A DNA stretch of 64,000 nucleotides from Candidatus Saccharimonadota bacterium (GTDB lineage: Bacteria > Patescibacteriota > Saccharimonadia > CAILAD01 > BJGX01): contig JAXLZU010000001.1 in the NCBI GenBank assembly GCA_046350735.1, forward strand, positions 204,530 through 268,529. The letters are read 5' to 3'. Within the stretch, counting starts at the first letter, position 1, and each line of letters starts with the position of its first letter. This document shows positions 17,711-23,379 of the stretch, in pieces. Made by a program: the position numbers and the translations under genes. The notes below the pieces were generated by a model. The model did not search any database. It was not told where the DNA came from and saw nothing but the letters and a program-made list of their open reading frames with translations.

Positions 17711-17787
17711 GGGGCTATAGCTCAGTTGGCTAGAGCGCTTGCATGGCATGCAAGAGGTCGGGAGTTCGAGTCTCCCTAGCTCCACCA
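17711..17787 (+). tRNA. tRNA-Ala (anticodon GGC), CCA encoded
   Basis: Cloverleaf GGGGCUA...GCUCAGUUGGCUAGAGC...anticodon loop AU-GGC-AU...GGUUCGAGUCC. Carries the G3:U70 alanine identity pair. Confidence 0.85.
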
Positions 17788-17919
17788 GCAATCATATACA
17801 AGGTACACCAAACAGGCGCTCACTATTCGTAGTCGGACGCCTTTCTATTTGTGTGTAGGGATTTGGCTGTTTGTCAAACGACCAGCTGTTTGAGACAATA
17901 CATAACATAAGCAATATCT

Positions 17920-20229
17920 ATGTCAGAAAGAACTCCATCACCAGCAGAGCCTCTGTATCGTAAATATCCAGATTTGCACAAATCTCAGTCAGTAGAGCAC
18001 GAGGTTGCTCGTCTGCGTCAGCATGGTGAGCGTATTCCCAACGAGCCGGCACCCAAGCTAGAAGCTTGGCTTCGGTTATTAGAGAGAACCCACACGGGTA
18101 AAGGTGGTAGTGAGGCCCGCCAAGCCGCGCAGCCACAAGTATACGAGCGCATAAAAACTCTCTACCATCGTCCAACTCAAGAAGGTGGCTATATTACTGG
18201 TCTTGACGATACCTCTATAGAACGGTATTTACGTCATCAAGCTCGTATTGCCCACGAGCAAGGCCACGGCGCTATTGAAGATATTATGGCCCGAGCGAAT
18301 GACCAAGTGCGAGCCGAGGCCAGAGAGACGATTCGAACCGACCAAGAACGTAGTCTCGATGCCTGGCTAGATTACCTTACCTCTGATGATGCCACGTACC
18401 CAATGTGGTTTAAATACTACACCTTCCGCAACATTACCCGTCTGGCCGAGTACGACAAACAAAAGGGTGAGTTCCCCAAGCGTTCTAAATCTACCACTGC
18501 ACCGTTCCCAGATATTAATCGCGAAGCCTTGGCGTATATGGAAGACAGCTTAGCCAAACACTATGGCCTCAAAGATATTGATCCAGATAACCCTAAGGAC
18601 GCTATCGACCCAGAAACTCAAGCGCTCTTAGACAAAGATGCCAACTTTGCCAGTCTCTACAGGCGTGCCATTGAATACGCTGCCCCCAAACACGCCGAAC
18701 AGCTCAATGTTACTGATGGTCGGTGGGTAAAGTACGACCAGACAAGTGACGAGAGTAAGAGTAAAGAGCTAGCCCACTCATTACATGGCTATGGCACAGG
18801 TTGGTGTACCGCCGGTGAGGGCATGGCGCATAGCCAACTGAGTGGTGGTGACTTTTATGTCTACTATACCAAAAGCGAAGATGGTCAGTACTCGGTACCT
18901 CGTGTAGCTATCCGCATGCAAGAAGAATATGGCCAGCAACACATTGCTGAGGTGCGGGGAATTGAAGCCGACCAGAACATGGAAGCAGCGTTGGTACCAA
19001 TTGCCGATGCCAAGCTTGCTGAGATAGACCCTGCAGGTGCTGAACGATACAAGAAACGCTCAGAGGACATGCGCCGCCTCACCGAGATAGACAACCTGCT
19101 CAAAGCTAATCCGAGTGCCGAGCTTAGCAAAGACCAGCTGAGATTTCTCTACGAACTAGATAGTAAGATTGAAGGCTTTGGTTATAACAAGGACCCACGG
19201 ATTGCCGAGATATTACAAACTCGCAACCCAAGGGTTGATTTGGCCTTTACATTAGATGTACAGCCCGAACAAATTAGTCTAACAAAAGAAGAGGCGTTGA
19301 GGGGCAATATAATCTATCACTATGGTAATCTCAACCTCAGCGGCCTGACCTCAGCCGAAGGCTTACAGCTGCCCGAGACGATCGGTGGTAATCTCGACCT
19401 CAACGGCCTGACTTCAGCCGAAGGCTTACAGCTGCCCAAGACGATCGGTGGTGATCTCGAACTCAGAAGCCTGACTTCAGCCGAAGGCTTACAGCTGCCC
19501 AAGACGATCGGTGGTTATCTCGACCTCAACGGCCTGACCACGGCCGAAGGCTTACAGCTGCCCGAGACGGTCGGTGGTGATCTCAACCTCAGCGACCTGA
19601 CCACGGTCGAAGGTTTACAGCTGCCCAAGACGGTCGGTGGTTATCTCGACCTCAGCGACCTGACCACGGCCGAAGGTTTACAGCTGCCCGAGACAATTGG
19701 CGGTGATCTCTACCTCAGAAGCCTGACCTCAGCCGATGGCTTGCACCTGCCTAAGACGATCGGTGGTGATCTCAACCTCAGAAGACTGACCTCAGCTGAT
19801 GGCTTACAGCTACCCAAGACGGTCGGTGGTGATCTCTACCTCAACGGCCTGACCACGGCCGAAGGTTTACAGCTACCCAAGACGGTCGGTGGTTATCTCA
19901 TACTCGAAGGCCTGACCACGGCCGAAGGTTTACAGCTGCCCGAGACGGTCGGTGGTGATCTCTACCTCAACTACCTGACCTCGGCCGAAGGTTTACAGCT
20001 ACCCGAGACGGTCGGTGGTGATCTCTACCTCAACGACCTGACCACGGCCGAAGGTTTACAGCTACCCAAGACGGTCGGTGGTGGTCTCATACTCGAAGGA
20101 CTAACCTCAGCCGAAGGCTTACAGCTGCCCGAGACGATCGGTGGTTATCTCGACCTCAGCAGCCTCGGTGCTGCAGATATAGCTACCCTGAGACAGCAAT
20201 ACCCTCTATTAGCAGACATGATTTATTAA
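17920..20229 (+). CDS. large hypothetical protein: 460-aa N-terminal domain plus 13 tandem 20-aa LRR-like repeats
   Basis: 769 aa with no signal peptide. The C-terminal third is LTSAEGLQLPxTIGGxLxLxx repeated 13 times. GC is about 52%, above the local background. Confidence 0.7.
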   Translation: MSERTPSPAEPLYRKYPDLHKSQSVEHEVARLRQHGERIPNEPAPKLEAWLRLLERTHTGKGGSEARQAAQPQVYERIKTLYHRPTQEGGYITGLDDTSIERYLRHQARIAHEQGHGAIEDIMARANDQVRAEARETIRTDQERSLDAWLDYLTSDDATYPMWFKYYTFRNITRLAEYDKQKGEFPKRSKSTTAPFPDINREALAYMEDSLAKHYGLKDIDPDNPKDAIDPETQALLDKDANFASLYRRAIEYAAPKHAEQLNVTDGRWVKYDQTSDESKSKELAHSLHGYGTGWCTAGEGMAHSQLSGGDFYVYYTKSEDGQYSVPRVAIRMQEEYGQQHIAEVRGIEADQNMEAALVPIADAKLAEIDPAGAERYKKRSEDMRRLTEIDNLLKANPSAELSKDQLRFLYELDSKIEGFGYNKDPRIAEILQTRNPRVDLAFTLDVQPEQISLTKEEALRGNIIYHYGNLNLSGLTSAEGLQLPETIGGNLDLNGLTSAEGLQLPKTIGGDLELRSLTSAEGLQLPKTIGGYLDLNGLTTAEGLQLPETVGGDLNLSDLTTVEGLQLPKTVGGYLDLSDLTTAEGLQLPETIGGDLYLRSLTSADGLHLPKTIGGDLNLRRLTSADGLQLPKTVGGDLYLNGLTTAEGLQLPKTVGGYLILEGLTTAEGLQLPETVGGDLYLNYLTSAEGLQLPETVGGDLYLNDLTTAEGLQLPKTVGGGLILEGLTSAEGLQLPETIGGYLDLSSLGAADIATLRQQYPLLADMIY
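19324..20163 (+). repeat. 13 near-identical in-frame 60-bp tandem repeats
   Basis: Each unit is ctgac(c/t)(t/a)c(a/g)gccgaaggcttacagctgccc(g/a)agacg(a/g)tcggtggt(g/t)atctc... and encodes 20 aa. Confidence 0.85.
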
Positions 20230-20338
20230 TGCCTTGAAGAGAGTTTGTATAAGTGAATGGTAAGCGCGACAATAGATCGCGCGATGAAAACCAATTCACC
20301 TCAACCATCAGCTAACAAGTAAATGTTATAATATAGCT

Positions 20339-20620
20339 ATGTCGTTTCAGGCCTACTTAGACAATATAGAAGAAAAAACTGGCAAAACTCCAAACCAGTT
20401 TATAGAGCTGGCAAAAGCAAAGGGTTTTGGTAAAGATACCAAATCTGGCGAGATAGTAGACTGGCTAAAACAAGATTACGATTTGGGCCGAGGCCACGCT
20501 ATGGCGTTAGTATATGTAATAAAAAATGGGCCAAAAATACGTGATAAACATGTAAATAGTGGTGGTACCCATAGCGATGCTAGTAACGAGTTAAGACTAG
20601 ACGGTATAAAAAACAGATAG
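20339..20620 (+). CDS. DUF4287-like protein
   Basis: N-terminal MSFQAYLDNIEEKTGKTP matches my recollection of the DUF4287 family. Confidence 0.6.
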   Translation: MSFQAYLDNIEEKTGKTPNQFIELAKAKGFGKDTKSGEIVDWLKQDYDLGRGHAMALVYVIKNGPKIRDKHVNSGGTHSDASNELRLDGIKNR

Positions 20621-23078: not shown

Positions 23079-23274
23079 GGCTGGTATGAGCGATGCTCAG
23101 ATCATCGCCGAGCACAGCAACTTGCAGGCCGGCTACGTCTGGCTGCAAGAGAACCCCGATGGCACAGCCGAGGCCGAGTCGCCGAAGCGCCCCGTTGGTT
23201 CTGGCTCGTCGCCAGCACGTCTGCAGCCACAGCCGAGCTACGGTGCCGAGTTTCGCACCCCTCAGCTCAGCTAG
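23026..23274 (+). CDS. small ORF in a high-GC (about 62%) segment, HTH-like N-terminus; possibly a gene fragment
   Basis: MPRMTKEQKAAEIMKLRRAGMSDAQIIAEH resembles a resolvase or transposase-type HTH. Followed by Pro/Ser/Gly-rich low complexity. Confidence 0.3.
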   Translation: MPRMTKEQKAAEIMKLRRAGMSDAQIIAEHSNLQAGYVWLQENPDGTAEAESPKRPVGSGSSPARLQPQPSYGAEFRTPQLS

Positions 23275-23282
23275 AACGTTTA

Positions 23283-23309
23283 CCAGTCTTTAACGAGACT
23301 GGTTTTTTT
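23283..23309 (+). terminator. rho-independent terminator ccagtct-ttaacg-agactgg-TTTTTTT
   Basis: 7-bp stem plus T7. Confidence 0.6.
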
Positions 23310-23379
23310 ATTGTAACTTTTGTTTATGAGAGAAAATTACCCTATAATTATTTTACTTTCTCTATAGAAAGAGGAGCAA

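Follow-up and report, generated by a model that had tools for sequence, protein, structure and literature searches.

The stretch between tRNA-Ala(GGC) and mscL in a metagenome-assembled genome (MAG) of 'Candidatus Saccharibacteria bacterium' is probably a lineage-specific, recombination-prone patchwork of modules with separate histories, not one integrase-borne island. It lies at 17.8–23.8 kb of the window (the whole 64-kb stretch of DNA that was analysed) and holds genes U0516_01195 to 01220. An initial annotation, made from the sequence alone, had described an accessory block at a tRNA integration site, perhaps a degraded island, and had named a lineage-wide conserved gene order with uniform composition as the observation that would speak against it. 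Among relatives, we found six different gene orders between tRNA-Ala and mscL, enclosed by the fixed flanks that mark a hot spot: obg, rsmC, a 69-amino-acid (aa) open reading frame (ORF) and the tRNA on the left, and mscL, a 102-aa gene, a 253-aa gene and murF on the right. Because the contents differ between relatives, gene order is not conserved and the modules vary independently. The stretch is thus accessory in that it varies in relatives, but it is not a single acquired unit.

We propose that the gene for a 610-aa protein, its overlapping 82-aa partner and a 132-aa gene would be old residents with mostly vertical inheritance, and that a DUF4287 gene and a 110-aa gene may have been gained or lost individually. 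A 769-aa gene belongs to a multi-copy, intrinsically GC-rich family spread across the Candidate Phyla Radiation (CPR), in which an N-terminal domain is fused to an array resembling leucine-rich repeats (LRRs). The conserved flanks (the tRNA, short terminator repeats, and mscL) may have served as crossover points. This is an ordinary kind of genome variability and leaves current concepts unchanged. For ultra-small episymbionts, it documents a small but active site of gene flux in a ~0.8-Mb genome, at which relatives show genuine scars of integration and foreign cargo of high GC. The features of the locus are as follows (coordinates in nucleotides (nt) of the window, strand in brackets).

17711–17787 (+): tRNA-Ala(GGC), left border of the variable locus (ARAGORN; Rfam tRNA, 67 bits)
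17788–17919 (+): leader from the tRNA to the 769-aa gene, with a consensus promoter match at 17871–17899
17920–19322 (+): 769-aa gene, N-terminal domain of ~470 aa, CPR-wide family
19323–20229 (+): 769-aa gene, 13 LRR-like 21-aa repeats (63-nt units to 20165) and C-terminal cap
20339–20620 (+): DUF4287 protein, 93 aa (Pfam PF14117, E 2.3e-24)
20750–21082 (+): 110-aa gene with a CxxC...CxxH pattern, no known family
21068–21108 (+): terminator hairpin (terminator-like site at 21075–21095), left copy of a ~40-nt imperfect direct repeat
21246–23078 (+): 610-aa clade-restricted protein with Cys205/His283/Asp299, candidate transglutaminase/papain-like fold
23026–23274 (+): 82-aa gene with its own AGGAGG site; terminator at 23282–23303
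23380–23778 (+): 132-aa gene, clade-restricted (ORF call)
23764–23804 (+): terminator hairpin before mscL (terminator-like site), right copy of the ~40-nt direct repeat
23836–24282 (+): mscL, right border, where core synteny resumes (Pfam MscL, E 2.7e-24); found in all relatives
25491–26765: Mur ligase (Pfam), MurF in the source record

The ORFs of 110, 610 and 132 aa are present as the initial annotation had them, and core genes (mscL, murF) do resume downstream; two small genes (102 and 253 aa) lie between mscL and murF. The block's end, placed at 23310, left out the 132-aa gene (23380–23778) that the same annotation had counted in, and its 'second high-GC fragment' turned out to be the intact, conserved 82-aa gene (23026–23274), which has its own ribosome-binding site and terminator. 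Upstream of tRNA-Ala are obg, a gene for an rsmC-like methyltransferase and the 69-aa ORF, with ordinary housekeeping genes beyond. The tRNA-Ala was the sole match in an Rfam scan of 17–25 kb.

Gene orders in relatives

Relatives were found by exact-protein look-ups and one genome scan, and were mapped by tblastn and ARAGORN. The genome scan, with MurF, gave two loci only; hence the comparative data come mostly from the exact-protein look-ups. Between tRNA-Ala and mscL the relatives read as follows.

L004 and L095–L097 (same species, 98–99% nt identity): order as in the window wherever the contigs reach
L001 (core ~77% nt, MurF 87% aa): tRNA 3′ end, 1.2-kb HAD insert, 727-aa homologue of the 769-aa protein, DUF4287, frameshifted 110-aa gene, mscL
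L003 (core ~74% nt): tRNA, two extra copies of the tRNA 3′ end, DUF4287, 610-aa gene, 82-aa gene, 144-aa homologue of the 132-aa gene, mscL
L005 (core ~68% nt): tRNA, one extra copy of the tRNA 3′ end, 610-aa homologue, end of contig
L007 + L094 (MurF 86% aa): tRNA, 698-aa homologue of the 769-aa protein, sulfatase, 610-aa gene, 82-aa gene, mscL
L088–L093 (MurF 60% aa): 610-aa gene, 82-aa gene, mscL

Two of the conspecific contigs, L004 and L096, break inside the repeat array of the 769-aa gene and the other two, L095 and L097, begin in the 110-aa gene; none of the four covers the tRNA or the N-terminal part of the 769-aa gene. Among the other relatives, L001 and L007 carry the 769-aa gene, whereas in L003 and L005 no copy separates the tRNA from the gene that follows. 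The DUF4287 gene is found at the locus in L001 (96% nt identity) and L003 (75%) and is absent from L005 and L007; its family, as initially annotated, is secure (Pfam E 2e-24; 85.6 bits against a cut-off of 27, over profile positions 1–59 of 60). The 110-aa gene is 93% identical (nt) in L001, where it is frameshifted, and is absent from L003, L005, and L007. It had been called zinc-ribbon-like; the CxxC...CxxH pattern is present and is the sole basis for that name, and the protein has no matches in Pfam, NCBIfam, PHROGs, or PADLOC. The 132-aa gene, which likewise matches no family, shares 57% aa identity with the 144-aa ORF in the same place in L003 and is absent from L001, L088–L093, and L094. 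The last codons and the terminator are common to the 110-aa and 132-aa genes; tested as possible paralogues, the two proved not to be. In L007, a sulfatase gene (3579–5219; GC 0.53, and 0.62 at third codon positions (GC3)) sits between the homologues of the 769-aa and 610-aa genes as a different foreign cargo.

In chromosomal hot spots, gene gain and loss are concentrated between conserved core genes. The locus resembles such hot spots, or plasticity zones, in its fixed core flanks, in contents that differ between relatives, and in its lineage-specific cargo (HAD, sulfatase, DUF4287, and the repeat protein). Unlike them, it is very small (0.3–6 kb), belongs to a reduced ~0.8-Mb episymbiont genome, and keeps part of its content (the 610-aa and 82-aa genes) stable across the clade.

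The tRNA-Ala insertion site and island hallmarks

The tRNA-Ala(GGC) beside the block is confirmed at 17711–17787 on the + strand (ARAGORN, Rfam), and the first gene lies directly 3′ of it (tRNA end at 17787, gene start at 17920). The tRNA-Ala of L007 is identical to that of the window; those of L003 and L005, also GGC, have diverged. Three relatives carry duplications of its 3′ end. In L001, a perfect 13-nt repeat, AGCTCCACCAGCA, occurs at the start of the contig and again 1199 nt later. Here the tRNA-Ala 3′ end and a degenerate version of it enclose a 1.2-kb insert (L001 1–1212, 56% GC), which carries a HAD hydrolase gene (GC3 0.79) and a 65-aa ORF but no integrase. L003 (4955–5250) repeats the last 17 nt of the tRNA plus a hairpin 160 nt downstream and has a third, partial copy as well. 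In L005 (2064–2259), 20 nt of the tRNA 3′ end recur without a mismatch 176 nt downstream, followed by a hairpin. The short, empty-looking duplications in L003 and L005 look like scars of past integrations. Since three relatives carry such duplications, insertion of small integrative elements at the tRNA-Ala 3′ end is real in this clade and makes the site a hot spot.

The initial annotation was therefore right about the tRNA as an integration site for L001, L003, and L005, and the window bears no scar of it. The att-like repeats of these relatives flank other short inserts, not the window's genes, and neither the window nor L007 has a tRNA 3′ duplication. A search of all 64 kb for a second copy of the tRNA-Ala 3′ end, allowing up to 3 mismatches, returned only the tRNA itself. 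Local alignment for a decayed copy over 17.8–26 kb stayed at chance level (best score 10, against a mean of 9.2 and a maximum of 12 for shuffles). The absence of a tRNA 3′ repeat, as initially reported, is thus borne out across the window. The leader (17788–17919) is likewise free of att-like repeats; it is 99.2% identical to that of L001, and its identity to L007 (~76% over 17800–17897) does not rise above that of the adjacent stretches 17600–17699 and 17898–17997. The window genes are not inside a tRNA-integrated element of this kind, and the window holds no such element.

No integrase, recombinase, transposase, phage or defence family was matched by any of the six block proteins or their neighbours (Pfam, NCBIfam, PHROGs, PADLOC), and the same scans found no integrase or recombinase among the flanking genes from 4.8 to 27 kb. 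The lack of such enzymes, already remarked on in the initial annotation, thus holds for the block and for ~10 kb around it. A literature search for an island described here, or for PcfJ (see below), gave nothing useful.

Composition is equally uneven. The window has a GC content of 0.42, and neighbouring core genes range from 0.38 to 0.46. The reported rise in GC is real for the 769-aa repeat ORF (0.49 in the N-terminal part, 0.57 in the repeats) and for the 82-aa gene (GC 0.62, GC3 0.75), but the 610-aa gene is compositionally typical. GC3 of the 769-aa gene is 0.47 in the N-terminal part and 0.43 in the repeats, against 0.30–0.38 in core genes. A k-mer profile, proposed as a check in the initial annotation, sets the 769-aa gene apart (4-mer z 2.4–6: 2.4 for the N-terminal part, 5–6 for the repeats) and places the 610-aa gene at the window median. 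Atypical composition is therefore limited to 17.9–20.2 kb and the 249-nt 82-aa gene, with no island-wide shift. Moreover, a GC excess over the flanks is a trait of the 769-aa family, seen at 23 of 25 loci (+3 points for the N-terminal part and +7 for the repeats). The high GC of the window's copy is therefore no evidence of recent import.

We weighed the possibility that the whole block at 17.8–23.8 kb is one tRNA-integrated island whose integrase and attR were lost by decay. Such an island would explain why non-housekeeping, mostly family-less genes lie directly 3′ of a tRNA, into which elements do integrate in relatives. Nevertheless, we regard it as very improbable. It has left neither an integrase nor an att remnant above chance, and the anomalous GC does not extend beyond one gene, from a family that is GC-rich wherever it occurs. 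Its supposed parts occur independently in relatives and not as a unit: L001 has the 769-aa gene without the 610-aa gene, L003 and L005 have the 610-aa gene without the 769-aa gene, and L007 has homologues of both together with a sulfatase. The degraded island of the initial annotation also fails on the 610-, 82- and 132-aa genes, which have native composition and core-like divergence, occupy the same locus in relatives, and are tRNA-adjacent even in L005.

Classical pathogenicity islands and integrative and conjugative elements (ICEs) are tRNA-linked integrative elements. The locus resembles tRNA-linked genomic islands and ICEs in its accessory genes directly 3′ of a tRNA, in their patchy distribution among relatives, and in the duplicated tRNA 3′ ends that flank foreign high-GC DNA in those relatives. 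It differs from them in that the window has no integrase, no att duplication, and no block-wide shift in composition, and its genes have separate histories, most being old residents. For annotation, the lesson is that a tRNA beside GC-rich, odd genes need not mean an island: the GC signal here reflects the composition typical of a single gene family, and the majority of the 'odd' genes are long-standing residents specific to the clade.

The clade-restricted 610-, 82- and 132-aa genes

Compared with L003, the 610-, 82- and 132-aa genes form one collinear stretch with all that lies downstream and have diverged like core genes (72–81% nt identity; 76.7% for the 610-aa gene). The 610-aa gene is syntenic in L003, L005, L007/L094, and L088–L093, and its homologue adjoins the tRNA even in L005, the most distant relative. 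Because of their native composition and core-like divergence, we regard the three genes as old, clade-restricted residents that were mostly inherited vertically, although 'vertical' is a simplification. In L088–L093, the 610-aa, 82-aa and MscL proteins are 73–74% identical to those of the window, whereas the neighbouring 102-aa, 253-aa and MurF proteins are 41–60% identical. Such incongruence may mean that the 610/82 module, too, is passed between lineages.

The 610-aa family is small, with 7 close homologue clusters among 5.8 billion proteins and 157 remote relatives in a profile search; none of its relatives was found in viral contigs. The initial annotation had called the protein transglutaminase-like. 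In a 53-sequence alignment of its relatives (14–77% identity), C205, H283, W295, and D299 are invariant. An AF2 model of the protein is of low confidence (pLDDT 36) and unusable for fold comparison; in it, the cysteine stands at the start of a predicted helix (205–218) and the histidine and aspartate on predicted strands (282–289 and 295–299), the order and secondary-structure context of the Cys-His-Asp triad of the transglutaminase-like superfamily. The whole 610-aa protein does not match Transglut_core (PF01841), and its core segment stays below the gathering score (13.1 bits against 23; E 0.12), so that the name has the invariant Cys-His-Asp residues and a sub-threshold match behind it, and no family match above threshold. 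One of the 53 distant relatives matches Transglut_core at E 0.003, and the family profile returned only noise from PDB sequences, save for a weak BtrH-N match (E 0.08). The protein thus resembles the transglutaminase/papain-like superfamily (PF01841, clan Peptidase_CA) in an invariant Cys followed by His and Asp; unlike that superfamily, it scores below the Pfam cut-off, and most of its 610 aa match nothing known. A transglutaminase-like identity is plausible but unproven.

In every lineage, the 82-aa gene shares the final 53 nt of the 610-aa gene but is read in a different frame. Its homologues (L003 7565–7813, L089 2491–2739, L094 1256–1504) are always 82 aa long and 73–96% identical (aa), and changes at third codon positions are ~2x those at positions 1 and 2. 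Its GC3 is held at 0.69–0.77 in genomes of 39–45% GC despite many changed third positions. An origin of this gene in an actinobacterial host was considered and rejected, as no homologue of it was found outside Saccharibacteria. The clade-restricted Cys-His-Asp protein and its overlapping 82-aa partner are candidates of note, as is the widespread CPR N-terminal domain of the repeat protein, to which we now turn.

The 769-aa repeat protein and its copies

The C-terminal part of the 769-aa protein is a tandem array (TRF: period 63, 13.4 copies, 85% matches, 19323–20165) of 13 units of 21 aa (LTSAEGLQLPxTIGGxLxLxx); the L001 copy has 11. The window protein itself matches no LRR family at E <= 0.01. 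One relative (P0105) passes LRR_EndoS (34.8 against 27.9 bits), and another family member (P0081) has an LRR_14 match below the cut-off. No signal peptide was obvious on reading the sequence. The family has more than 1874 homologues and at least 555 metagenome loci, with source names that include Saccharibacteria, Paceibacterota, Parcubacteria, and Uhrbacteria. Of 63 metagenome loci, 7 have a tRNA, of varied identity and strand, no more than 600 nt upstream; by rough estimate this is at most ~2x background, and we rejected tRNA linkage as a rule of the family.

In oral TM7 (Saccharibacteria) pangenomes, expansions and insertions of LRR proteins annotated as COG4886 have been described and an adherence role proposed (Shaiber et al., bioRxiv 10.1101/2020.04.29.069278). 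The window's family resembles those proteins in being multi-copy and having LRR-like repeats, with a clade-dependent presence at the locus. It differs in its definition, which is by COG4886 in that study and by the N-terminal domain here.

The N-terminal 480 aa are modelled with confidence (AF2 pLDDT 90) and have no significant match among PDB folds (best E 0.18). The top Foldseek match in BFVD is a phage 'PcfJ-like protein' (E 3e-4, with a TM score of only 0.17). Residues ~226–424 (window 18595–19191) match phage polyvalent proteins in BLASTP (~1e-13) and profile searches (1e-17 to 1e-20), with a conserved pattern of GTGWCTAGE...GDFYVYY...PRVAIRM...EVRG. A scan of viral contigs with the family yielded 23 loci, several inside ~3000-aa phage proteins, one of which carries LPD38; viral loci with the core domain include L101, L103, L104, L113, and L118. 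Judged by sequence, phage large polyvalent proteins contain a domain homologous to the core of this N-terminal domain. Such proteins of phages and conjugative elements (Pfam LPD domains) were reportedly described by Iyer and colleagues in 2017. No Pfam model covers the shared domain, and the 769-aa protein has no LPD match in Pfam; at 769 aa and in a cellular context, it is not a giant multi-domain protein of a mobile element. The likeness to phage and conjugative large polyvalent proteins (LPD38 is PF18857) consists of this one internal domain; unlike them, the window protein stands alone, is 769 aa long, has an LRR-like tail, and is cellular. In one IMG/VR contig (L099, 5178–15622), a full-length homologue of the N-terminal part without LRR repeats is flanked by two large serine recombinases, a reverse transcriptase, ClpB, and tRNA-Ser.

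The shared domain and the phage PcfJ-like match, together with the position of the L099 homologue between two serine recombinases and a reverse transcriptase, might suggest that the 769-aa gene is the remnant of a prophage or conjugative element that delivered it beside the tRNA. We consider this highly improbable. No phage or conjugation genes adjoin the gene in the window, L001, L006, L007, or L098, there are no PHROG matches, more than 1800 cellular CPR homologues lie amid housekeeping genes, and an upstream tRNA is present at only the 7 of 63 metagenome loci mentioned above.

The window genome holds a second copy of the 769-aa family, P0002 (U0516_04230), and the MAG of L001 also has a paralogue, P0005 (L006, 9881–11788), 44 nt after tRNA-Val(GAC). 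Another genome has two copies 6 kb apart. In L006, a large serine recombinase lies ~7 kb upstream of the paralogue, beside a tRNA-Asp/Gly/Thr cluster. In the N-terminal domain, the window protein is 100% identical (aa) to the L001 copy, 94% to P0002, 90% to P0005, and 75% to its counterpart at the same position in L007. The window copy and the L007 homologue nevertheless have the 5′ leader and first ~12 codons in common, which argues that the gene is not a recent arrival in the window. A leader like that of L007 on a body like that of its own paralogue suggests gene conversion.

At the nucleotide level, the leader and N-terminal part differ from L001 at 2 of 1545 positions (99.9% identity). 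Beyond the repeats, identity decays through the DUF4287 gene (96%), the 110-aa gene (93%), and mscL (88%), with spacers at 87–92%, to the core level of about 75–80%. This near-identity points to a recent exchange between species or to gene conversion. We propose that homologous recombination may have kept the 769-aa copy similar to its paralogue and to the copy of another species, through gene conversion within the genome and through DNA uptake followed by recombination between genomes. Gene orders, identities, composition and repeats were observed directly; we infer this mechanism, the direction of any transfer, and whatever part the repeat protein may play in host interaction. The 2.7 kb that L001 lacks is bordered in the window on either side by a ~40-nt repeat (21068–21108 and 23764–23804), and both window copies align with a single copy in L001. 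This terminator repeat is a plausible crossover site, at which recombination would have removed the 610-, 82- and 132-aa genes from L001.

Several points weigh against a patchwork shaped by recombination. All relatives are MAGs or metagenome contigs, several of them short, and the adjacency of L007 and L094, which come from the same assembly, is assumed. The L001 arrangement is found on one contig only, and that contig starts inside the tRNA; the 99.9% stretch stops exactly at the first tandem repeat unit, and a metagenome-assembly chimera could have yielded it. The identity of the 610-aa protein does not track that of the core (70% with MurF at 86% in L094, 74% with MurF at 60% in L089). A history with no transfer at all, in which fast-evolving lineage genes were inherited vertically and lost differentially and the near-identity to L001 is an assembly artefact, would fit an identity break in tandem repeats, where assemblers mis-join, and would also fit a leader shared with L007 and a GC excess intrinsic to the family. 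We think it unlikely. Chimeric assembly could explain the 99.9% stretch but not the 93–96% stretch: past the repeats, on sequence that is clearly not of the window strain, the DUF4287 gene, the 110-aa gene and the spacers still exceed the ~77% of the core. DUF4287 identity falls from 96% in L001 to 75% in L003, the window's 769-aa copy is closer to its own paralogue (94%) than to its positional homologue (75%), the 610-aa and MurF identities are incongruent, and relatives carry foreign high-GC inserts at the same locus (HAD, GC3 0.79; sulfatase, GC3 0.62).

It is tempting to speculate further that the 769-aa class comprises CPR-wide, multi-copy, exchangeable effectors of host interaction or conflict, built from a phage polyvalent domain and a reshuffling LRR array. 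Copies might settle after tRNAs (Ala and Val here) and be homogenised or passed on without an integrase, by conversion or by uptake and recombination, and GC-biased conversion might explain the GC excess. We hold this broader picture to be distinctly doubtful.

Two further observations concern other parts of the window. A second GC-rich patch (0.51–0.52) lies at 6636–7941 on the minus strand and contains two adjacent small membrane-protein ORFs (6699–7280 and 7375–7941). These look like paralogues (a C-T-A-P-V motif occurs in both), one of them much GC-richer; neither the minus-strand ORF 7375–7941 nor a plus-strand ORF (6636–7181) that overlaps 6699–7280 matches Pfam. Finally, LeuS of L001 is 806 aa long and has no NUDIX domain; LeuS of the window (27965–30808) is a 947-aa protein with an internal NUDIX domain match, as it is in L004, L088, and L095.

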